64,000 bases of DNA from Pseudomonadota bacterium (GTDB lineage Bacteria; Pseudomonadota; Alphaproteobacteria; UBA11222): positions 40,609 to 104,608 of the forward strand of contig JBMOMX010000008.1 of the NCBI GenBank assembly GCA_049323435.1, read 5' to 3'. Under the pieces are notes generated by a model. It did not search any database. It was given only the letters and a program-made list of their open reading frames with translations, and had not been told where the DNA came from. Positions 24,653 to 55,108 of this stretch are shown here, in pieces; position 1 is the stretch's first letter; the number at the start of each line of letters is the position of its first letter. Made by a program: the position numbers and the translations under genes.

Positions 24653-25450
24653 ATGAACCGCCTTGACGGAAAAATTGCATTGATTACTGGCGGCGCGCGC
24701 GGCCTTGGCGGGGCATCTGCAAAATTGATGGCTGCCGCCGGCGCCAGCGTGCTGATTACCGATCTGCTGGATGAAGCGGGCGCGGCCACAGTGGACGAAA
24801 TCAAGCGCGCGGGCGGAAAGGCGGCCTACCTGCACCATGATGTGGTAGAGGAAGATGCCTGGATCAAGGCGGTCAAATTCGCTACGGACAGTTTTGGCGG
24901 GCTGGATATTCTGGTCAATAATGCGGGCATTGCCGATGCGGGAAAGCCCATCGTGGACACCACATTCGAATCCTGGCGGCGCGTTATTTCCGTTGATCTG
25001 GACAGCCTGTTTCTAGGCATAAAATATGCGATCCCGGCGCTGGCCGCGCGCGCCCCCAAATGGCCGGGTGGCGGATCGATTATTAATATTTCCTCGATCA
25101 TGGGGCTGATCGCCATGCCCAACGCCGCCTCTTATATCGCAGCCAAGGGCGGCGTGCGGCTGTTGACCAAGGCAGCGGCGGTTGAACTGGCGCCCAGCAA
25201 AATTCGCGTTAATTCCGTGCATCCCGGTTTCACCGAAACCGATATGGTGAAAAACGCATTGAAGGATCTGGGCCGGGGTTCTGGCGCGGGCGAGAATATG
25301 GTGAAGGAAATGATCACCGCGCGCCATCCGATCGGCCGCATGGGCGTGCCGATGGATATTGCCAATGCGGTATGTTTCCTCGCCTCGGATGATTCATCTT
25401 TTATGACCGGATCGGAAGTGGTGGTCGATGGCGGTTATGTTGCGCAATAG
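24653..25450 (+). CDS. SDR-family oxidoreductase, paralog 1 of 3
   Basis: TGGARGLG Rossmann motif. NNAG. Catalytic S...YxxxK (ASYIAAKGG). GGAG RBS 8 nt upstream. Confidence 0.85.
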   Translation: MNRLDGKIALITGGARGLGGASAKLMAAAGASVLITDLLDEAGAATVDEIKRAGGKAAYLHHDVVEEDAWIKAVKFATDSFGGLDILVNNAGIADAGKPIVDTTFESWRRVISVDLDSLFLGIKYAIPALAARAPKWPGGGSIINISSIMGLIAMPNAASYIAAKGGVRLLTKAAAVELAPSKIRVNSVHPGFTETDMVKNALKDLGRGSGAGENMVKEMITARHPIGRMGVPMDIANAVCFLASDDSSFMTGSEVVVDGGYVAQ

Positions 25451-25459
25451 GAGGTCAAA

Positions 25460-26257
25460 ATGAACAGAGTGGATGGAAAAGTGGCGCTGATCAGCGGCGG
25501 CGCGCGCGGCATTGGCGGCATGTCGGCGCGCAAGCTGGCCGAGGCGGGCGCAAAAGTGGTGATCACCGATCTGCGCGAAGACGAGGCGCAGGTGACCCTG
25601 GCCGCGATCAAACAGGCGGGCGGCGAGGCGAAATTTTTCAAGCATGATGTGGCCATTGAAGAACAATGGGAAGCCGCGGTGAAGTTCGCGGTGCAAACCT
25701 ATGGCGGCGTGGATATTCTGCTGAACAATGCCGGTGTCGCGGGCGCGGCCAAGCCGCTGGAGGATTTAAGTCTTGATAGCTGGCGCCGCCTGATGTCGAT
25801 CAATCTGGATGGGGTGTTTCTGGGCATGAAACATGTCATTCCCAGCATGAAATCGCGCGCCCATCTATGGCCGGGCGGCGGATCGATCATCTCGATTTCA
25901 TCCATCATGGGTTTTATCGGCGGCGCGCGCGCCGTGGCCTATTGCGCCAGCAAGGGCGGCGTGCGGCTGATGACAAAGGCGGCGGCGATCGAACTGGCGC
26001 CCGCAAAAATCCGCGTCAATTCGGTGCATCCCGGCTTTATCAATACGCCGCTGCTGCGCGCGGGCGAACAGGCGATGAACCAGCGCCAGGAAGGCGGTTT
26101 TCAGAAATTCGTCGATGATGTGGTGTCGCGCCATCCGCTTGGGCGGCTGGGCGAGGAACAGGATATTGCGCACGCCGTGCGGTTTCTGGCGTCGGATGAT
26201 TCCGCCTTCATGACCGGCACGGAAGTGGTCGTTGATGGCGGCTATCTGGCGCAATAA
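25460..26257 (+). CDS. SDR-family oxidoreductase, paralog 2 of 3
   Basis: Same motif set (SGGARGIGG, NNAG, VAYCASKGG). About 55-65% identical to its neighbours by eye. Confidence 0.85.
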   Translation: MNRVDGKVALISGGARGIGGMSARKLAEAGAKVVITDLREDEAQVTLAAIKQAGGEAKFFKHDVAIEEQWEAAVKFAVQTYGGVDILLNNAGVAGAAKPLEDLSLDSWRRLMSINLDGVFLGMKHVIPSMKSRAHLWPGGGSIISISSIMGFIGGARAVAYCASKGGVRLMTKAAAIELAPAKIRVNSVHPGFINTPLLRAGEQAMNQRQEGGFQKFVDDVVSRHPLGRLGEEQDIAHAVRFLASDDSAFMTGTEVVVDGGYLAQ

Positions 26258-26290
26258 CAATAAGTATAATCAACAGGAAGGAACGCCGTA

Positions 26291-27082
26291 ATGAATAGAA
26301 TGGATGGCAAGATTGCCTTTATTTCCGGCGGCGCACGCGGGCTGGGGGCGGAAACCGCGCGCATGATGGCGGCTTGCGGCGCCAGTGTGGTGATCGGCGA
26401 CATATTGGATGATGCGGGCAAGAACACCGCGGCGCAGATCGTCAGCGATGGCGGCAAGGCGCTCTATACGCATCTGGATGTAACGCAGGAAGACAGCTGG
26501 CAGGCGGCCATCAAGGCAGGCGTCGATAAGTTTGGCGGGCTGGATGTGCTGGTGAATAATGCCGGTATTTTCTTTATGAAAAGCACCGAGGATATGACGC
26601 TGGCCGATTGGCATCGCATGAGCGCCGTCAATCTGGACGGCGTGTTTCTGGGCACCAAAACCGCGCTGCCGCATCTGAAGGCGCGCGCCGCCAAGGCCCC
26701 GGTGGGCGGGGCGATTATCAATCTGTCCTCGATCGCGGGCATTATCGGCATCGCCAATTTCACCGCCTATCATATGTCCAAGGGCGGGGTGCGGATTTAC
26801 ACCAAGGCCTGCGCCATGGAATTTGCGCCCTATCGCATCCGGGTCAATTCCATTCATCCCGGCCTGATCGAAACCGACATGGCTAAACAGGTGGTGAAGG
26901 AAATGAGCGGCGTGATGGGTTCCGACAATGCGGTGCGCGACATGTTTGTGCAAAGCCATCCGATCGGGCGCATTGGCGAACCCAAAGACATTGCCAATGG
27001 GATTGTGTTTCTGGCGTCGGACGACAGCGCCTTCATGACCGGATCGGAACTGGTCGTCGATGGCGGCTGGACCGCGCAATAA
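26291..27082 (+). CDS. SDR-family oxidoreductase, paralog 3 of 3
   Basis: SGGARGLGA, NNAG, TAYHMSKGG. Confidence 0.85.
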   Translation: MNRMDGKIAFISGGARGLGAETARMMAACGASVVIGDILDDAGKNTAAQIVSDGGKALYTHLDVTQEDSWQAAIKAGVDKFGGLDVLVNNAGIFFMKSTEDMTLADWHRMSAVNLDGVFLGTKTALPHLKARAAKAPVGGAIINLSSIAGIIGIANFTAYHMSKGGVRIYTKACAMEFAPYRIRVNSIHPGLIETDMAKQVVKEMSGVMGSDNAVRDMFVQSHPIGRIGEPKDIANGIVFLASDDSAFMTGSELVVDGGWTAQ

Positions 27083-27180
27083 GCTATCGACGTGCGTAGA
27101 TTGACGCATTGACTCACGCAATTCTCAGTGTCACCCCGGACTTGTTCCGGGGTCCAGGGCCGCACGTTAAGGCCTTACAA

Positions 27181-27541: not shown

Positions 27542-28595
27542 TTCACGAATCAAGTGCAACACCCTACAAAGGTGTTGCAATGGGAACAAGCTATGGCCAG
27601 CTCGGCCTTAACGAGCGGATAGAGATTTATCGTTTGCATGCAGACGCTCACTCTCTTCGGTTTATCGCTAAAACGCTTGGCCGGGATGTTTCGACGATCA
27701 GCCGGGAACTGAAGCGTAACAGCAAAAATTCACACCGTTGGCGCGGCGGATACGACCCAGTCCGGGCGCAGGAGCTGACGCAACGCCGCCATGCGCGGGG
27801 ACGAACCTATAAGCTGGAACGCCAGCCGGAACTCCGCAAACAGGTCTTCGGCCACCTTGCAATGGGATGGTCGCCTGAACAGATCGCGGGCCGGCTGACG
27901 CTGGCGCAGGGTAAATCTGTAATCAGCCATGAGTCAATCTACCGTTATATTTATTGGCGCGTCTGGTCGTTCAACGAGAACCTGCATTTGCTGCTGCCAC
28001 GCCATAAACGCAGGCGCGGCAGGCAGCGGCGCAAGGACGGTGGAAGATGGGCAGAGCGCATCCACCGCCGGGTTTCCATTGCAAAACGGCCAAAAAGCGT
28101 CAATGCCCGCCAATGCATCGGCCACTGGGAGGCGGACACAATGGCGTTCTCAAAACAGCAACAGGCCGTGCTGGTCCTGATTGAGCGGCGTTCGCGCTTT
28201 ACCATCCTGCAACCACAAAAAGACAAATCGTCCGTATCAACTGTCAGCATAATGGGCGATGTTCTCAAAGCCTTTGCCCCGTCCAAACGCCGCTCCGTGA
28301 CCATGGATAATGGGCCGGAGTTCACCAAACATTATCTGCTGGCAGATCAGCTTGGCCTCAAAACATGGTTCTGCGACCCGCGCTCACCCTGGCAGAAAGG
28401 CGGCGTCGAAAACACCATCGGACGCTTGCGCCGTGTCTTGCCGAGAAAAACAGACCCAGCCCTGCTAAGCTTCGATGACTTCGTCCGTTTGAGTGAACAA
28501 CATAATACTACACCCAGAAAATGCCTCGGTTACTTGACCCCGAAAGAAGTCTTCCTTAATAGAAAGCCTCAACGTGTTGCACTTCAAACGTGAAT
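27542..28595. mobile_element. IS30-family insertion sequence
   Basis: Imperfect ~23-bp terminal IRs (TTCACGAATCAAGTGCAACACC ... CGTGTTGCACTTCAAACGTGAA, 18/23 matches). 1054 bp. The right IR overlaps the transposase stop, as is typical for IS30. Confidence 0.8.
27580..28593 (+). CDS. IS30-family DDE transposase
   Basis: N-terminal HTH region, IGHWEADTM (IS30 GHWEGD motif), rve-type DDE core. 337 aa. Confidence 0.9.
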   Translation: MGTSYGQLGLNERIEIYRLHADAHSLRFIAKTLGRDVSTISRELKRNSKNSHRWRGGYDPVRAQELTQRRHARGRTYKLERQPELRKQVFGHLAMGWSPEQIAGRLTLAQGKSVISHESIYRYIYWRVWSFNENLHLLLPRHKRRRGRQRRKDGGRWAERIHRRVSIAKRPKSVNARQCIGHWEADTMAFSKQQQAVLVLIERRSRFTILQPQKDKSSVSTVSIMGDVLKAFAPSKRRSVTMDNGPEFTKHYLLADQLGLKTWFCDPRSPWQKGGVENTIGRLRRVLPRKTDPALLSFDDFVRLSEQHNTTPRKCLGYLTPKEVFLNRKPQRVALQT

Positions 28596-28976
28596 CCACA
28601 CCCGCAACAAGTGCGGGGTGACACCGGGTGTGGCAAAGCTTCAAGCTAAAAATAATTTCAGTTCGTCCTCCGACGAAACCTAACCGGGCTTTATGACTCG
28701 TATGTCATTGCCATTGCATTCGGAACACACCCAATTTTCTCTGATTTAGCCTTTCGCGTCAGTCCCCCCAGCACCACTGTATAGTCTGGCCGCCCGGGCT
28801 CCACAAAAACGGCAAATATCTGCCGGCCATTTTCCTCCGAGTTTTGCCTCAAGCGCGCTGATGCGGGCTTTGAGGTCATCTACCTCCTCCGGAACTTGAT
28901 GAAGCCGCTTCCAGATAGGAATGCGATCCAAAGCACTGAGCATGTCCTCAACTACGCCTATAGACCCCTCCCCTCA

Positions 28977-39503: not shown

Positions 39504-39627
39504 TGCTGTTTGCGGCGGGCCGGCCTAACATGTGCGCCCGCCTGTCTTTTTTTGCGCTGTAACCAGTTCTTAGGAAAAATCCGGCATAGTGCGTGCCGTG
39601 AATTCATCCAAAAGGGCGGGTAGACTG

Positions 39628-40419
39628 ATGGCGCAATTTAAAACTCGGCCGTTTAGCGCCGAGATCCAGCTTATGAACCAGACAAATGGCGCAGCAGGGG
39701 CGGCGGGATCATTTAACGCCGTCCCGCCTGTGGTGCTGCGTCCGGCCGCTTTTTCCGGCCAGGCCGAAATATTGGCGGCCATCGCGGCGCTGCGTGAAGA
39801 GCTGTTCAACAGATCAGGCGATAGCGATACCGGCGCCGCAATGGCGATGGTCACCGATAAAATGCTGCAAACCCATAGCCGCGATATTGAAGACGCCAAA
39901 AAGCTGAAGGCGGAAATTGATTCGCTTTCTTCGGCGATTGACACGACAAAACGTGAAATCGCGTCCATGCGCTACAAGGACGCGAACCGTTATGAACGCA
40001 TAACCGATGTCACCCACGAACTGGATGAAGTTGTGTTCGACACCGAACGCGCGACAGAAAATATTCTGTCCAGTTGCGAAGAAATCGAACGCCATATCGA
40101 CCAGATTGAGTTGCAGGCCAGCTCACCCGATGAGCGCGCCGAAATTCAGGCGCTGGGACAGAAGGTTGTCAAGATTTACGAAGCCTGTAACTTTCAGGAT
40201 ATTACCGGCCAGCGCATAACCAAAGTCGTGAACACCCTGAAATTCATTGAACAGCGTCTTGATGTCATGATGTCTATCTGGGGCGGCCGGGAGGAATTTG
40301 ATTCCATCGAATTGCCGGAAGCAGAAGTCGCGCATGAAGATGATTTATTGCTGAACGGCCCCGCCCGCGAAGGCGGCGACAGTGTCAGCCAGGCCGATAT
40401 CGACGCGCTGTTCGATTAG
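39628..40419 (+). CDS. cheZ: CheZ-like chemotaxis phosphatase (distant CheZ homolog)
   Basis: NFQDITGQRITKVVNTLKFIEQRL matches the CheZ catalytic helix ([24 protein letters not shown], catalytic D/Q). C-terminal LLNGP...DIDALFD matches the CheZ CheY-binding tail. Confidence 0.6.
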   Translation: MAQFKTRPFSAEIQLMNQTNGAAGAAGSFNAVPPVVLRPAAFSGQAEILAAIAALREELFNRSGDSDTGAAMAMVTDKMLQTHSRDIEDAKKLKAEIDSLSSAIDTTKREIASMRYKDANRYERITDVTHELDEVVFDTERATENILSSCEEIERHIDQIELQASSPDERAEIQALGQKVVKIYEACNFQDITGQRITKVVNTLKFIEQRLDVMMSIWGGREEFDSIELPEAEVAHEDDLLLNGPAREGGDSVSQADIDALFD

Positions 40420-40457
40420 AGCGTTTTGTGATCAAGTTGAAGCAAGCCGCCTAATTT

Positions 40458-40687
40458 GTCATTGCTGTAAGAGTCAGACAATTCGCTGACAAGATTGCGG
40501 CGTTAATGGACTTAAAAAACGCTGTCACCCCGCACTTGTTGCGGGGTCCAGGGTTACAAACTCAGGCCTTCATTTGAGACTCCTGGACCCCGGAATAAAT
40601 CCGGGGTGACAATCTTTTTTAAGTCTTCGAACCTTCACTTAACCCAGGTTTCTTGTCAGCGAATTATCTGACTTCTACAGCAATGAC
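40458..40687. repeat. 230-bp nested palindromic element. 36-bp outer inverted repeats (GTCATTGCTGTAAGAGTCAGACAATTCGCTGACAAG / rc) enclose an 89-bp MITE.
   Basis: Outer arms 40458-40493 and 40652-40687 match 34/36 as reverse complements. Inner flanks ACTTAAAAAA / TTTTTTAAGT are also inverted. Confidence 0.75.
40523..40611. repeat. 89-bp MITE with hairpin TIRs (TGTCACCCCGCA...TCCGGGGTGACA) and internal GGTCCAGG/CCTGGACC repeat. Miniature derivative of the GIY-YIG element at 27.1 kb.
   Basis: Termini identical to the ends of the 27129-28623 element. Each end is itself a 8-9-bp-stem hairpin. Confidence 0.75.
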
Positions 40688-40744
40688 GCAGAAGATGGAG
40701 CGATTCCATCTGATCCGAATAGGGTCTAGGGACAAAACGGTCTT

Positions 40745-41572
40745 TCACCCGCCCTGCCATTTGGCCGGGCGTTTTTCCAGCCAGGCGGCAATGCCTTCCA
40801 CCGCGTCCGGGTGATTGACCGCTTCATCCAACAGCCGCTCTGATTCTTCCACCGCCGCATTCAGCGGGCGGTGCAGATCGGCGTAAAGCTGGCGCTTGGT
40901 CATACGCAAGCTGCCCGGCGAATTTTTCTCCGCCAGCATGGCGGCGTAATCGCGCACATGCGCCATCAATTCGCCTTCCGGCAGAACCTTGTTCAGCAGC
41001 CCCATCGCAAACGCTTCTTCGGCCAGAAACACCCGGCTGGACAGCAGAATATCCGCCGCATGGGTGACCCCAACCAGCCGCGGCAGCACCCACGAGAGAC
41101 CAAATTCCGCCGGATAGTTCAGCTTGCCATGCGCGGTGGTGAATTTCGCCCCCGCCGCCGCAAAACGCAGATCCGCAAAGCAGGCCAGCACCAGCCCTAC
41201 CCCCGCCACCGCGCCGTTAATGGCGGCGATCACCGGCTTGCTCAGCCCATAATGATAGGCAAAAGTGGCGTCAAATTCCGGCTGCACGCCAAAGCCTGGC
41301 CTGGCAATGTCATCGGTTGTGCCGCTGTCATAGCCGCCGCGTTCGGCATGGCCGCTGACCGCCGCCGTATCCGCGCCGGGGCAAAAGGCGCCGCCTTCCG
41401 GATCGCCGGTCACCACAATGACCCGCACCGCCGGATCGTTTTCCGCCAGGGCCAGCACATGGCGGTATTCCATATGCATGCGTCCGGTCCAGGCGTTCTT
41501 GCGCCGGGGCCGTGACAGCGTGAGTGTGGCGATCTGATTTTCAACGCCGTAGCGGATGGTCTTGAGTTCCAT
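40745..41572 (-). CDS. Enoyl-CoA hydratase/isomerase family protein
   Basis: Crotonase fold motifs (VVTGDPEGGAFCPGAD). Confidence 0.85.
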   Translation of the reverse strand: MELKTIRYGVENQIATLTLSRPRRKNAWTGRMHMEYRHVLALAENDPAVRVIVVTGDPEGGAFCPGADTAAVSGHAERGGYDSGTTDDIARPGFGVQPEFDATFAYHYGLSKPVIAAINGAVAGVGLVLACFADLRFAAAGAKFTTAHGKLNYPAEFGLSWVLPRLVGVTHAADILLSSRVFLAEEAFAMGLLNKVLPEGELMAHVRDYAAMLAEKNSPGSLRMTKRQLYADLHRPLNAAVEESERLLDEAVNHPDAVEGIAAWLEKRPAKWQGG

Positions 41573-47489: not shown

Positions 47490-47504
47490 GCAGCCGTTTT
47501 CTTT

Positions 47505-47529
47505 TGTCACCCCGCACTTGTTGCGGGGT
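47505..47529. repeat. Solo 25-bp REP-like hairpin (TGTCACCCCGCA-CTTGT-TGCGGGGT), the minimal unit of the MITE family
   Basis: Identical to the MITE terminal hairpin. Sits 16 bp after the cysK stop. Confidence 0.7.
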
Positions 47530-47558
47530 AATTAACTGGAGCATAATGATCTCGGATT

Positions 47559-47678
47559 GACCCAACCCCCTCCCTGTCCCTCCCCCTTTCAGGGGGAGGG
47601 AACGCAAGATGGAACGCCTCCCTCCCCCTGAAAGGGGGCCTGAAGATGCAGGTACCAATAAGGGTTGGGGTGGGGGTC
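47559..47678. repeat. Complex C-run/G-run palindromic element with three interlocking hairpins
   Basis: CCCTCCCCC-TTTCA-GGGGGAGGG (47578-47600, perfect 9-bp stem). GGGGGAGGGA ... TCCCTCCCCC (47592-47628, 10-bp stem). CCCCC-TGAAA-GGGGG (47624-47638). Flanked by CCCAACCCCCTCCC and GGGTTGGGGTGGGGG. Confidence 0.7.
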
Positions 47679-47757
47679 CATTTTGCGAAAAATGGGGCCG
47701 GTAAATTGATCGATCGAATAGCATTACGCACCGGACTATGCGTAGAGGTCTTTCAAT

Positions 47758-48564
47758 ATGAGCCAACCACTCACCGAAACCCAGATCGAACGTTACGCCC
47801 GCCATATCATGCTGCCGGAGGTGGGCGGCGCGGGCCAGGCGAAACTGCTGGCGTCGCGCGTGCTGCTGGTTGGCGCGGGCGGGCTGGGTTCGCCGCTGGC
47901 TTTGTATCTGGCGGCGGCGGGGGTGGGAACCATCGGCATCGTGGATGATGATGTGGTGTCGCTGTCCAATCTGCAACGCCAGATCGCGCACAAGACCCGC
48001 GACATTGGCAGGCCCAAAACCCAAAGTGCTGCCGAAAGCATTGCGGACATCAATCCGGATGTGAAAATTGCGCAGCATCCGGTCCGGCTGAATGCCGGAA
48101 ATGTCCGTGAACTGATCAAAGACTATGATCTGGTGGCCGATGGCTGCGATAATTTCGCCACCAAATTTCTGCTTAATGACGCCTGCTATCTGCTGCAAAA
48201 GCCGCTGGTCGCAGCAGCCCTTGGGCGCTTTGAAGGCCAGCTTTCCACCTTCCGCGCTTATGAGGGGGAAAAGCCCTGCTATCGCTGTATCTTCCCCTCG
48301 CCGCCGCCCGCAGACAGCATGCCCAATTGCGCGGAAGTGGGCACGCTGGGCCTGGTTGCGGGGGTGATGGGCACGTTACAGGGCATCGAAGTGGTCAAGG
48401 AACTGCTCGGCATCGGAACCAGCATGACCGGGCAGTTGCTGATCTATGACGCGCTCGACACCACCTTCCGCAAAATCAAGGTGCGGCGCGACCCGCAATG
48501 CCGCCTGTGCGGGCCGCAACCGGCGATCACATCGCTGGATGCGGCGGAATATGCGCCGGGATAG
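47758..48564 (+). CDS. moeB: Molybdopterin-synthase adenylyltransferase / ThiF-MoeB family E1-like enzyme
   Basis: ERYARHIMLPEVGGAGQAKL. Rossmann GAGGLGS. C-terminal CxxC pair (CYRC ... CRLC). Confidence 0.85.
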   Translation: MSQPLTETQIERYARHIMLPEVGGAGQAKLLASRVLLVGAGGLGSPLALYLAAAGVGTIGIVDDDVVSLSNLQRQIAHKTRDIGRPKTQSAAESIADINPDVKIAQHPVRLNAGNVRELIKDYDLVADGCDNFATKFLLNDACYLLQKPLVAAALGRFEGQLSTFRAYEGEKPCYRCIFPSPPPADSMPNCAEVGTLGLVAGVMGTLQGIEVVKELLGIGTSMTGQLLIYDALDTTFRKIKVRRDPQCRLCGPQPAITSLDAAEYAPG

Positions 48565-48600
48565 GCGGAATCTTATTTTGACTTAATCATTATCCCATAG

Positions 48601-48696
48601 CGTCATTGCGAGCGGAGCGAAGCAATCCAGAGTCAAACAAACAGGCTTTACCGTGTGGCTCTGGATTGCCGCGTCGCTTCGCTCCTCGCAATGACG
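48601..48696. repeat. 96-bp near-perfect palindrome (32/38-bp arms, 26-nt loop) between convergent moeB and gst
   Basis: CGTCATTGCGAGCGGAGCGAAGCAATCCAGAG ... CTCTGGATTGCCGCGTCGCTTCGCTCCTCGCAATGACG. Termini GTCATTGC/GCAATGAC are shared with the 40458-40687 element. Confidence 0.75.
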
Positions 48697-48733
48697 AATT
48701 AAGGGCGGTGATTCAATCCAACCTCAACAAACT

Positions 48734-49369
48734 CTATGCCTGCGCCTGCGCCAGGGTCTTTTTCCATGCGGGCAATGCTTGCAGCTCCGCCAGCCAGCGG
48801 CGGATTTCCCCATAGGGCGCGAGCGGAATTTTCGCTGCCTCCGCATGCACGAGATCGCCGCCAAGCGCAAAATCGGCCACGGTAAGTTTATCACCCGCCA
48901 CATATCTGGTTTTCGCAAGTTGCGCGTCCAGCACTTTGGCGCTGCGGTTAAACTGCTCTTCGGCCTTGGCGAGTGCGGCCTTGTCCGGCTCCATGATGCC
49001 CAGCACCTGCGGTTTGGCCACATTCTCGAAGGTGAATGAGCCGGTATGCGGATCCCAATGCGCGAGATCCCAGAACTGCCATCGGGTTACATCGAGGCGC
49101 GCGCGCTCGTCTTTCGGCAACAGACCGCTTTCGGGTTTTTGCAGCGCCAGATATTGCAGAATGGCGTTCGATTCCCACACCACATAATCGCCATCCTTCA
49201 GGGTGGGCATCCGCATATTGGGATTGATGGCCGCATATTCCGGTTTTTGAAAATCACCCCTGCGCGGATCAAGCACGCGCAGCGTGTAATCCACGTCGGC
49301 ATGATTTGCCGTCAGCAGCACCTTGAAAGCGCGCGGGCTCAGCGGAAATGCGAAAATTTCAATCGCCAT
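48734..49369 (-). CDS. Glutathione S-transferase
   Basis: N-terminal thioredoxin-like GST domain (SPRAFKVLL..., VVWESNAILQYL) and C-terminal helical domain. Confidence 0.85.
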   Translation of the reverse strand: MAIEIFAFPLSPRAFKVLLTANHADVDYTLRVLDPRRGDFQKPEYAAINPNMRMPTLKDGDYVVWESNAILQYLALQKPESGLLPKDERARLDVTRWQFWDLAHWDPHTGSFTFENVAKPQVLGIMEPDKAALAKAEEQFNRSAKVLDAQLAKTRYVAGDKLTVADFALGGDLVHAEAAKIPLAPYGEIRRWLAELQALPAWKKTLAQAQA

Positions 49370-49370
49370 G

Positions 49371-49742
49371 TCATCCTCCTTTAGTGGTTTTCGGTTTTTT
49401 CACTTTCACCGGCAGCGTGGCCGCATATTCCATGGAGCGTTTCAGCCAGCGTTTGGCGGCGGCCTTGTCGGCGAGAATATGCCCGGGTATCGCCGCATAT
49501 TCGCGCATGATTCGCCCCGGCATCGGCATGAAGCTGTCCGCGCCTTCCTTTTGCTGCATGATCACCCGGTCCTTTTCGGACAGGCGCAGGACAAAGCTTT
49601 CCTGATGCAGGCCCGCAAACATATTACCATTGACGAATGCGGCGGGATAGCCAAACATCTGGCGGCGTTCCACGCGCGCATCATCGGGAACAACCGCGCC
49701 AAACAGCGCCACCAGTTCCGGGGGTGATTTTCGCCAGGCCAT
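49371..49742 (-). CDS. TfoX N-terminal domain-like protein
   Basis: RRQMFGYPAAFVNGNMFAGL matches the TfoX_N family core. Confidence 0.55.
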   Translation of the reverse strand: MAWRKSPPELVALFGAVVPDDARVERRQMFGYPAAFVNGNMFAGLHQESFVLRLSEKDRVIMQQKEGADSFMPMPGRIMREYAAIPGHILADKAAAKRWLKRSMEYAATLPVKVKKPKTTKGG

Positions 49743-49753
49743 CCTGTCCCCTC

Positions 49754-50323
49754 TCAGTAATTGAACCTGGGCTGCCAGCCATTGGCGCCCTCGGGAAGCA
49801 GGTCAAACAGATGCCAGACGGCGCAGAAATCATCTCCCGGCCCTTCGCTGAGATCAGAGACGCGTAAAATTTTTCCATTGCGGCGCTGAAACACAGAAAT
49901 TCCCGGCAGCCAGCCGCCGCTCTCGCTGCGATAGCCCATATCCTGTGCGAAGCTTGATTCCTGATGGCTGGCCATCGGGAACCGCCATCCGCGCTCTGCT
50001 GCAAATTTCTGCTGTGTCTGCGGCGCATCGGGGCTGATCACCACAAATGCCGCGCGGTTCGCCAGATGCGCATAGACGCCATTATAGCCATCCGCCCACA
50101 GGGTGCAGTAAGCGCAGGACGCCCCCATATTGTGAATGACGAACAGATCGTCCTTGCCGCCAAAAAGCGCCGACAGGTTTTTATCGCCGTCCAGGGTCTT
50201 GAAGGTGTAATCGCTGACCTGTTGCGGCTCAATCTGCGCCTGAATTTTGCGCATCGCGCCGCGGATTTCCATGATCTGCTGGCGGTAACCATTCAGCTTG
50301 CCAGTTGCATCTTGATATTTCAT
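49754..50323 (-). CDS. DUF899 thioredoxin-like protein
   Basis: 189 aa with CxxC (ASCAYC). Typical partner of ArsR-family regulators. Confidence 0.65.
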   Translation of the reverse strand: MKYQDATGKLNGYRQQIMEIRGAMRKIQAQIEPQQVSDYTFKTLDGDKNLSALFGGKDDLFVIHNMGASCAYCTLWADGYNGVYAHLANRAAFVVISPDAPQTQQKFAAERGWRFPMASHQESSFAQDMGYRSESGGWLPGISVFQRRNGKILRVSDLSEGPGDDFCAVWHLFDLLPEGANGWQPRFNY

Positions 50324-50757
50324 GGCTTTTTCCTTTCTGATCCAGGGGGTTTTCCCGAATTTTTCCCGGCCGCTGCTTTTTCCTTGCGGCGTTCAATCTT
50401 GTTCAGGGAGTGGGCAAGCATATCAAATTGCGCCTGCCAGTAATGGCTGTAGCGGTTGATCCAGACGGCGGCGGCGAATATCGGATCAACATCCAGGCTG
50501 CAGGTGCTGATACGTCCTGTGCGTTCCTGCTGCACCAGCCCCGCCCGCACCAGAACCTGGATATGTTTTGACACGGCCTGAAGCGAAATATTGAAAGGCG
50601 CCGCAAGCTCAGACACCAGCATTGGCTGCACGCGCAGCCGTTCCAGAATGGCGCGGCGCACCGGATCCGACAATGCAAAGAATGCGCGGTTCAGCATTTC
50701 TTCCGCATGCGCCTCTTCATCGCCCCCAACGGGCCGTATCGCCTGGTGTGACTTCAT
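50320..50757 (-). CDS. ArsR/SmtB-family transcriptional regulator
   Basis: FFALSDPVRRAILERLRVQPMLVSELAAPFNISLQAVSKHIQVL is a wHTH of the ArsR family. Overlaps the DUF899 start. Confidence 0.8.
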   Translation of the reverse strand: MKSHQAIRPVGGDEEAHAEEMLNRAFFALSDPVRRAILERLRVQPMLVSELAAPFNISLQAVSKHIQVLVRAGLVQQERTGRISTCSLDVDPIFAAAVWINRYSHYWQAQFDMLAHSLNKIERRKEKAAAGKNSGKPPGSERKKP

Positions 50758-50822
50758 GCGGCGATATTATCAATGTAGCAGTTGATAGTCAACCAATATA
50801 TTGATTATTGGCCCGAAAAAAT

Positions 50823-50862
50823 AACGGCCCCTTGCTGATCATTTACAAGGGGCCGCGCGTTG
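50823..50862 (-). terminator. Rho-independent terminator after the 2-hydroxyacid dehydrogenase gene
   Basis: Minus-strand GGCCCCUUG-UAAAUGAUCAG-CAAGGGGCC followed by GUUAUUUUUU. Confidence 0.6.
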
Positions 50863-50865
50863 CAG

Positions 50866-53130: not shown

Positions 53131-53243
53131 GCGGCATCACACCGGATTTGGAACGGCCGTGCGGCATTACGCCGCGCTTGCAGTTAGCGCGCGGCATTAC
53201 GCCGCGCTTGCAGTTAGCGCGCGGCATTACGCCGCGCTTGGGG
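53131..53243. repeat. Tandem array of ~4 x 30-bp units (GCGGCATTACGCCGCGCTTGCAGTTAGCGC), each with a GCGGC-N5-GCCGC hairpin
   Basis: Perfect copies at 53161-53190 and 53191-53220. Partial third copy at 53221-53243 contains the pckA stop codon. Degenerate leading copy at 53131-53160. Confidence 0.8.
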
Positions 53244-54831: not shown

Positions 54832-55108
54832 GCTTCTCTCCCTCTGGCCGTATTCTTTCAGCTGAGCTGCGACACGGCTTAGACAAAATAATACTGCACT
54901 TGGCAGCTTCCGGATATCACGGTCCTAGGTCTGAATAAACCCCTAGCTACGCTGCCATATTTAATCATTCTTAGATTAAAGCGGCGTAAGGGGCAAAAAT
55001 AATTTCCTGCCCCATAGCACGCATCTGCAATGACCCGTAGAAACACAGTCATGCCTGCTTTTTGCAGAATATGCAGTAATCACCGTCACATTAATCCGCA
55101 ATAATCAG

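Follow-up and report, generated by a model that had tools for sequence, protein, structure and literature searches.

A 96-bp palindrome between convergent moeB and gst genes is very probably a dimeric CGTC-tagged REP repeat

The stretch of DNA analysed here (the window, 64,000 nt of contig JBMOMX010000008.1 from an alphaproteobacterium of the UBA11222 lineage) contains a long palindrome at 48601-48696, between the convergent genes moeB and gst. This raises the question of what kind of element it is, how it came to lie there and what it might do for the two genes. An earlier note, made from the letters of the window, had suggested a second family resembling miniature inverted-repeat transposable elements (MITEs). 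The analysis presented here leads to a different assignment. The palindrome is very probably a repeat of the REP type (repetitive extragenic palindrome) that belongs to the CGTC-tagged superfamily and is present in the dimeric head-to-head (HH) form, as the CGTC counterpart of the REPINs or bacterial interspersed mosaic elements (BIMEs). Its family is dispersed, delimited by tags, free of target-site duplications (TSDs), structurally constrained, located at the 3' ends of genes and, at this locus, polymorphic between strains.

The limits 48601-48696 given for the palindrome were exact, and the proposed ~32 paired positions around a 26-nt loop agree with the ~33 paired positions and the nominal 26-nt loop that we found. 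The sequence of the element reads CGTCATTGCGAGCGGAGCGAAGCAATCCAGAG - TCAAACAAACAGGCTTTACCGTGTGG - CTCTGGATTGCCGCGTCGCTTCGCTCCTCGCAATGACG and its ends are CGTCATTGC / GCAATGACG. It is not a simple long inverted repeat. Each arm of the palindrome forms a tagged hairpin unit of its own, framed as CGTC-ATTGC...GCAAT-CCAG. One arm measures 30 nt and the other 36 nt, and the two units are inverted with their tags outside and a spacer of 26-30 nt between them:

48601-48696, no strand: the entire element, in which two CGTC-tagged hairpin units and a spacer form a heterodimer of the HH type (tags outside).
48601-48630, plus strand: left unit, short form of 30 nt, with CGTC tag, outer stem ATTGC/GCAAT, GCGGAGC mini-hairpin and CCAG tail.
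48631-48660, no strand: spacer, consisting of AG, 26 nt (TCAAACAAACAGGCTTTACCGTGTGG) and CT.
48661-48696, minus strand: right unit, long form of 36 nt, which reads CGTC-ATTGCGAG-GAGCGAAGCGA-CGCG-GCAAT-CCAG on the minus strand.

The tag of both units is CGTC (48601-48604 and the reverse complement of 48693-48696), and the mini-hairpin GCGGAGC of the left unit carries a GNA triloop. The "termini" which had been seen in the octamer GTCATTGC/GCAATGAC are the unpaired CGTC tag together with the first bases of the hairpin unit. Folded as DNA, the 96-mer has a minimum free energy of -33.7 kcal/mol (z -7.46). At gathering thresholds no Rfam family matched the window, and a permissive search of the element region produced only noise (E >= 0.76, plant and animal miRNA hairpin models). 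An open reading frame (ORF) of 69 amino acids (48606-48815, plus strand) that begins within the element matches no Pfam family; such spurious ORFs are typical products of translating this repeat family in automatic annotation.

CGTC-tagged REPs were described by Di Nocera, De Gregorio and Rocco (BMC Genomics 2013, PMC3733652) as families CGTC-1 to -4, with a stem of 8-9 bp and a loop of 4-5 nt (their Table 1). They include dRS3 of Neisseria and RPE-4/RPE-6 of Rickettsia, and according to the authors further, structurally unusual CGTC classes exist. The units have an unpaired CGTC tag, often TGTC and also the variant CCTC, A-T pairs at the start of the stem and a CCA tail. They occur mainly in Alphaproteobacteria, between convergent or unidirectional ORFs and near 3' ends, mostly as HH dimers and often as heterodimers, with spacers of 20-100 bp that are conserved within a lineage. 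Unlike GTAG REPs and REPINs, they have no associated RAYT (REP-associated tyrosine transposase) or other transposase (Di Nocera et al., 2013). The window element has the tag, the A-T start of the stem (ATTGC...GCAAT) and the tail (CCAG) of this definition. Its family is likewise dispersed, multi-copy, dominated by HH dimers and found near convergent or unidirectional 3' ends with no recurrent transposase, and canonical TGTC-ACCCCGSA-5 nt-TSCGGGGT-CCA members are present in the same window. In contrast to CGTC-1 to -4, its unit consists of a 5-6-bp outer stem, an internal loop (GAG/CGNN), a 2-5-bp inner stem and a 3-4-nt loop, in which a GNA or tetraloop caps the inner helix, and there are two length classes of 30 and 36 nt. 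As the stem and loop sizes differ, the frame of the superfamily fits but none of the four described families does; the element is of a known kind, with a unit architecture outside these families. The unit sequence is absent from the text and supplements of that paper (figures not covered), the later papers found in a literature search only cite it, and literature searches with the sequence string returned unrelated primer matches alone.

The family was sampled by an exact-anchor scan of IMG/VR contigs, which covered at least 120 contigs; all unit, dimer and context numbers in this and the next paragraph hold among the matches listed. At least 249 units were found, with 89 HH, 4 tail-to-tail and 3 head-to-tail dimers and 61 singletons, and the dimer spacers mostly measure 16-18 nt. 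Unit length is bimodal, with peaks at 30 nt (at least 114 units) and 36 nt (at least 77 units), and heterodimers of a short and a long unit are the commonest combination (at least 31, vs 12 of two short units). The frame CGTC-ATTGCGAG...GCAAT-CCAG is invariant, and GTCA is preceded by C in 158 of 187 units and by T in 20. The inner mini-hairpin, commonly GCGNAGC, is variable: in its core a GNA triloop or a tetraloop closes an inner helix, as in GAGC-GAA-GCGA, CCCC-GTA-GGGG or GCGC-GCTT-GCGC. In 40 distinct 36-nt units this inner helix covaries. All five pairs are doubly changed, in 24 cells compared to 3.6 +/- 1.6 after shuffling (reached in 0 of 500 shuffles), and sliding the partner column lowers pairing from 86 % to 15-51 %. 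For the outer helix 99 % of the cells are paired, which is no evidence because the search anchors fixed those columns.

A crude census of gene contexts gave at least 59 unidirectional, 9 convergent and 4 divergent dimers (divergent 4/72), and 47 of the 59 unidirectional dimers lie at most 50 nt from the end of the upstream gene. Most of the "viral" contigs which carry the repeat (L001-L120, e.g., L003 7148-11918 and L001 3882-5860) are head-tail clusters of the RcGTA type (Rhodobacter capsulatus gene transfer agent, GTA), with genes for terminase, portal, S78 protease, capsid, connector, gp17, tail tube, DUF2460 and BR0599. The dimers occupy the few gaps between genes that these operons have, e.g., that of portal and protease or that of the connector and tail-completion genes. 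Since the contigs are mostly such clusters, the IMG/VR sample really represents alphaproteobacterial chromosomes, and the recurring neighbour genes reflect synteny and not a transposase.

Species-representative genomes were scanned for both units exactly as in the window with any spacer between them; the source genome is not among the matches. Both exact units were detected in 12 contigs, which belong to Sphingopyxis (several species, up to 3 copies per metagenome-assembled genome, MAG), Novosphingobium, a Sphingomonadaceae MAG, a Rhodoblastus MAG and a "Proteobacteria" MAG, and the exact 32-mer of the left unit recurs in 12 genome contigs. The Sphingomonad copies have another spacer of 11-14 nt (CGGTTTACGCnnn) and unrelated flanks; a weak preference for Y before CGTC and R after GACG is the sole tendency in the flanks of the copies. 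By BLAST against plasmids the element was found in Novosphingobium, Methylosinus, Methylocystis, Methylobacterium and Halomonas, at 35 places on one 1.76-Mb Novosphingobium replicon.

Copies from the source lineage were obtained in a metagenome scan with the tail and the first half of the window's spacer as query. It yielded 21 contigs, equal to 15 distinct loci, with the spacer type of the window. Their tetranucleotide correlation with the window is r 0.93-0.98 (0.65 for one short contig), compared to 0.96-0.97 for the window halves against each other and 0.77-0.86 for the Sphingomonad loci. These copies all share a conserved 26-nt spacer with the consensus TCACAAACACAGGCCTTTGCGTGAGA, of which the window spacer TCAAACAAACAGGCTTTACCGTGTGG is a variant. 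The long unit can be on either side, dimers of two short units do not occur among them, 7 of 16 are exactly 96 nt long, which is the modal length, and the median pairwise identity is 81 %. Between paralogous copies the similarity begins at the (C/T)GTC tag and stops at GAC(G/A); because these copies align tag to tag, 48601-48696 is the exact repeat unit. A second copy in the sister lineage L166 matches the window at 48602-48698 alone and sits between another convergent gene pair. One Logan contig terminates inside the element, at window position 48625, an assembly break such as a repeat would lead one to expect.

This dispersal bears on a rival explanation of the locus, a bidirectional terminator or attenuator that evolved in the host for moeB and the gst operon and is no repeat at all. 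The element is placed symmetrically between the two stop codons, at 36 and 37 nt (moeB stop at 48564, gst stop CTA at 48734-48736), and forms a very stable hairpin on both strands. The 121-nt region folds as RNA with -59.8 kcal/mol on the plus strand (shuffles -35.3 +/- 3.6, z -6.78, 0 of 200) and with -56.3 kcal/mol on the minus strand (z -6.08). Like intrinsic terminators it is a GC-rich hairpin directly 3' of stop codons. However, no run of T/U follows the stem on either strand and a terminator consensus scan called no site at the element, so that the earlier note had rightly considered it no canonical intrinsic terminator. The ~33-bp stem is also far longer than typical, the same sequence is repeated genome-wide and found at many unrelated loci and genomes, and there are strains and sister lineages that lack the element and have overlapping genes. 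As the copies are dispersed, an origin specific to this locus is almost certainly wrong.

The REP dimer may still act at the 3' ends of both genes. E. coli REPs are established barriers to exonucleases at 3' ends and partial, U-independent blocks to transcription. By analogy, both convergent transcripts would end in or enter the same ~33-bp hairpin, which could stop 3' exonucleases, and the hairpin could form a partial transcription block that needs no U-tract and insulates moeB from the gst operon. Just past the stop of the 2-Hacid_dh gene, at 50820-50860, a minus-strand GC-rich hairpin of 9 bp (GGCCCCTTG...CAAGGGGCC) is followed by TTATTTTTT. By eye this resembles a conventional intrinsic terminator; the scan made no call there (11-nt loop). 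If it is real, the source genome uses U-tract terminators elsewhere.

In its strict form the MITE proposal would make the palindrome a deletion derivative of a DDE-type insertion sequence (IS), with GTCATTGC as terminal inverted repeats (TIRs), moved by the transposase of the IS with formation of TSDs, and would place a second palindrome of the window, at 40.5 kb, in the same family. A dispersed, multi-copy palindromic family of ~96 bp does exist, and this part of the proposal stood. Like the bacterial MITEs Correia, ERIC, RUP, Nezha and QMITEs, the element is ~100 bp long, palindromic, dispersed, intergenic and able to affect neighbouring transcripts. The octamer GTCATTGC/GCAATGAC also ends the inverted repeat at 40458-40687, as had been noticed, with similarity that runs ~22-40 nt beyond it on one side, and an IS30-family element is present in the window. 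However, no relation to TIRs, TSDs or an IS was found. The TIRs of MITEs match a parent IS and TSDs are made, and neither is present at the element. None of the ~28 copies with readable flanks has a TSD, and the flanking 8-mers of 13 + 16 copies are unrelated. A transposase with matching inverted repeats (IRs) was detected neither in the window nor recurrently near copies; among 128 flanking genes at 33 loci (best 25 Pfam families) no transposase family recurs. The sole IS in the window (27542-28594) has IRs (TTCACGAATCAAGTGCAACAC) unrelated to the element ends. Furthermore, single units, several length classes and covarying inner stems are the behaviour of REPs and not of TIRs.

The inclusion of the 40.5-kb element did not hold either. 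What the two palindromes have in common is limited to the tag plus ATTGC and ~22-40 nt of one flank, and one family with both is not supported because the 37-nt arms of the 40.5-kb element occur nowhere else in ~1.7 Mb of related DNA (BLAST). The octamer occurs 9 times in the window compared to 3.6 +/- 1.9 expected, an excess which is explained by the four occurrences in the two palindromes; the other 5 are at chance level. The occurrence reported at 28722 beside the IS30 is really at 28704-28711, where 110 nt separate it from the end of the IS30-like element, and no partner with which it could form a palindrome is present. The IS30-like element was rejected as parent or mobiliser, with unrelated IRs and this octamer isolated. 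At 54961-55044, where a context like the left flank had been described, the three short words are present, yet several coding windows share as many or more 8-mers and the local alignment scores with the element region are at noise level, so that this occurrence does not exceed chance. A strict MITE is thus largely refuted and highly improbable; its revival would take an IS that ends with CGTCATTGCGAG... or consistent duplications at fresh insertions.

For the preferred reading, a CGTC-tagged REP dimer, the REPINs and BIMEs provide the comparison. These are doublets of GTAG REPs that are mobilised by RAYTs (Bertels and Rainey, 2011, PMC3116915; Nunvar; Ton-Hoang). In both cases two inverted units and a spacer form one long hairpin, copies are extragenic, diverged and number tens per genome, no TSD is made and a single-strand hairpin intermediate is presumed. 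The conserved 26-nt spacer, the similarity from tag to tag and the modal length of 96 nt, whichever side has the long unit, are in line with this. In difference to REPINs, the tag is CGTC and not GTAG, and a RAYT/Y1 gene flanked by units is not known and was not seen in the 64 kb of the source genome and the scattered loci that were covered. REPIN/RAYT systems are described as lineage-specific and vertically inherited, whereas identical units of the element cross orders. By analogy to the action of RAYTs and of the Y1 TnpA of IS200-IS605 on GTAG REPs, the element may spread, or may have spread in the past, through a single-strand hairpin intermediate that would be processed in trans by an enzyme reading the tag and the foot of the hairpin. 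We know of no dedicated enzyme for CGTC REPs. Heterodimers could be favoured since they interrupt perfect palindromy, an idea put forward by Di Nocera et al. (2013).

The history of the locus was read from contigs with an identical or >90 % identical MoeB. The neighbours of the element are:

47758-48564, plus strand: moeB, encoding a ThiF-family adenylyltransferase (NCBI name MoeB), the upstream convergent gene.
48565-48600, no strand: left flank, directly after the TAG stop of moeB and within a ~180-nt strain-variable segment.
48697-48743, no strand: right flank, which holds the gst stop and lies within the same ~180-nt indel.
48734-49369, minus strand: gst, encoding a glutathione S-transferase (NCBI name GST).

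The gst gene is the last of a minus-strand block of four genes (ArsR/HTH_5, DUF899, TfoX_N, GST) which is absent in some strains. Three alleles of the junction were found in DNA that is 98-99.9 % identical. Allele A, with the element, is present in the window and in L122, L123 and L137-L142. In allele B (L143) the element is absent, while gst and the block are kept: it has 4 nt in the place of window positions 48561-48743 (183 nt) and an overlap of moeB with gst at TTAA, and the flanks are 99.6-99.7 % identical on both sides. In allele C (L121, GCA_964648535.1, and L144) 2299 nt (48565-50863) are replaced by 159 nt. This allele loses the element together with GST, TfoX_N, DUF899 and ArsR, with breakpoints exactly at the moeB and 2-Hacid_dh stops, and its 159-bp replacement (L121 5931-6089) consists of a CCTCCC...GGGGGAGG hairpin repeat and a motif named M, described below. 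The moeB/gst junction is thus a hot spot of structural variation at the strain level.

In two sister lineages the moeB junction is compact (9 and 3 nt), which makes it probable that the compact state came first and that the ~180-nt segment was inserted. In this case non-autonomous DNA would have been inserted, with ~40 nt on each side of the repeat, into a moeB/gst junction that originally overlapped. A simple model of a TSD or of a clean insertion does not fit allele A vs B: TTAA is changed to ATAG...CTAT and a 6-nt CTGCGC duplication lies in gst, and no clean duplication is seen. The ATAG...CTAT replacement provides TAG stops for both moeB and gst.

The sister lineage L166 (MoeB 91 %) shares the intergenic segment. 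Its intergenic DNA is 93-96 % and its gst 95-100 % identical to the window, whereas cysK, moeB and 2-Hacid_dh reach merely 79-89 %. Taken together, element and gst share ~96 % identity and the core flanks 80-88 %. As the segment is so much closer to the window than these genes, element and gst have been exchanged between the lineages. This suggests a further possibility, that the element is a recombination site or cassette boundary of a mobile gst module and the substrate of a site- or structure-specific recombinase, similar to attC or Xer sites, which would account for adjacent genes being gained and lost. The position of the element at the left edge of the strain-variable region, the breakpoints of allele C at the moeB and 2-Hacid_dh stops and the identity of 93-100 % for element and gst, next to 79-89 % for the surrounding genes, would agree with it. 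However, allele B keeps gst and the block without the element, and ordinary homologous recombination explains the identity profile. Other copies lie in housekeeping operons (nuo, pyruvate dehydrogenase) and in GTA clusters with no cassette-like context, and the neighbours at chromosomal loci are housekeeping genes. In difference to integron attC sites, the element ends with CGTCATTGC / GCAATGACG and not with RYYYAAC / GTTRRRY boxes, so R and L boxes are missing, and no integrase is among the Pfam matches of the neighbouring genes. A cassette boundary is therefore quite improbable.

Several points weigh against the assignment to a CGTC-tagged REP dimer. The unit does not fit the stem and loop sizes of the four described CGTC families. 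The separate units of the window copy are unstable as DNA (-2.7 and -3.9 kcal/mol by nearest-neighbour energies, no better than shuffles, with parameters that do not model the sheared G-A pairs of the GCGNAGC type), so the long hairpin between the units should dominate in this copy. The copies in the lineage are old, as their median identity indicates, and hence give no sign of current mobility. The strain indel measures ~180 nt and not 96 nt, which means that no clean insertion or excision of the repeat unit is seen, and its direction is taken from outgroups only. Finally, the genes in the census of contexts were called with a home-made program, and GTA clusters make up much of the sample.

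It is unlikely that the ATTGCGAG-family CGTC dimers are still active, by transposition or structure-directed recombination, through a broadly conserved enzyme that would read the tag and the invariant foot of the hairpin. If this were true, a broad enzyme would explain why units of 30-38 nt are identical across alphaproteobacterial orders without a dedicated transposase, and the sampled population, with three alleles at one junction and an exchanged segment of element and gst, would offer a natural setting in which the reaction could be caught and the enzyme identified.

The palindrome is a genuine feature and no product of chance, but the locus reveals no new kind of system. It provides a reliable annotation for a sequence that gene callers routinely translate into spurious ORFs, and describes a REP family of the CGTC class in which the hairpin is bipartite and covaries and short units pair with long ones. 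It also adds data on presence/absence and on exchange between lineages to a class of repeats that has raised the question of its mobilisation since 2013. Of greater value are three by-products: the junction with its three alleles, the exchange of element and gst between lineages, and units that are identical across orders although no mobiliser is known.

The four-gene block next to the element (GST, TfoX_N, DUF899/AhpC-like and ArsR-type HTH) varies between strains. In L137/L139 (8011-9179) it is lengthened by an extra DUF3800 gene, and the sister lineages hold different subsets of it, L166 gst alone and L167 two DUF899 genes. The MoeB protein of the window is 82-91 % identical to that of the closest Alphaproteobacteria MAGs and ~67 % to those of Sneathiella and Emcibacter.

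The left flank of the element (48565-48600) is not repeated with it and is unlike the flanks of other copies. In some genomes CGTC dimers are bracketed by an outer motif (TAGAGCGG.ATGACTTTAGGTTGAATC). This motif M (TAGAGCGGnATGACTTTAGGTTGAATC) usually begins at a stop codon; sites are L126 7709-7852, L148 871-904, L121 6053-6086, L003 and L159 and, weakly, window 40415-40445 and 48709-48741. Around dimers it is clear in L126, L148 and L121. In a Sphingomonadaceae MAG it forms an outer inverted pair around CGTC dimers, and elsewhere it stands beside dimers or other hairpin repeats. It may serve as a target for insertions or form the outer part of composite elements. The likeness of the left flank to M is not significant, while the right flank falls into the top 0.03-1.3 % of the null vs M and, against the left flank of the 40.5-kb element, into the top 0.2 % of the null. 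Both resemblances of the right flank are tentative. M was rejected as an explanation of the 180-nt indel: at the window locus the right flank alone is significantly similar, and an nhmmer profile misses the locus.

The window also contains a second set of units, in which the same frame surrounds another stem, TGTC-ACCCCGSA-5 nt-TSCGGGGT-CCAGG, and the general pattern GTCA-stem-loop-stem-TCC occurs 5 times compared to 0.9 in shuffles:

27129-27158, plus strand: canonical TGTC-tagged unit of the second family.
28601-28626, minus strand: truncated unit with a TGTC tag; the IS30-like element has its right end 6 nt away.
40523-40611, no strand: HH dimer of canonical TGTC-ACCCCGSA-(5 nt)-TSCGGGGT-CCAGG units at 40523 (plus) and 40611 (minus), a superfamily relative.
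47505-47529, plus strand: member of the second family with a TGTC tag but no CCAGG tail, located between cysK and moeB.

The dimer at 40523-40611 is the central part of the 40.5-kb element, a nested composite palindrome at 40417-40728 between the convergent ORFs 39589-40419 (plus) and 40745-41572 (minus). The outer arms of this palindrome measure 37 nt, are 92 % complementary and begin with YGTCATTGCTGTA...

The 268-bp cysK-moeB spacer (47490-47757) holds, in addition to its TGTC-ACCCCG unit, long CCCTCCCC/GGGGGAGGG hairpin repeats (~47560-47680). This spacer is missing in the sister lineages L166 and L167, in which cysK and moeB overlap by 4 nt. The source genome has acquired small palindromic repeats at several junctions that were once compact.

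REP-targeting ISs are known in other bacteria. In the window the IS30-family element at 27542-28594 has 21-bp IRs and a transposase ORF of 337 amino acids (27580-28593). The truncated unit at 28601-28626 (minus) adjoins its end, with the unit at 27129-27158 (plus) as a possible partner, and judged from this arrangement the IS seems to lie within a REP dimer or next to one.

A perfect 30-bp tandem repeat of 2.7 copies (GCGGCATTACGCCGCGCTTGCAGTTAGCGC) is located at 53156-53240, just 3' of the phosphoenolpyruvate carboxykinase gene; overlapping BLAST segments against L121-L123 indicate that its copy number differs between strains. At 24653-27121 three tandem paralogues of ~270 amino acids follow each other with a spacing of 807-831 bp and a DNA identity of 68-78 %, and their repeated GGxDILVNNAG motif suggests that they are short-chain dehydrogenases.

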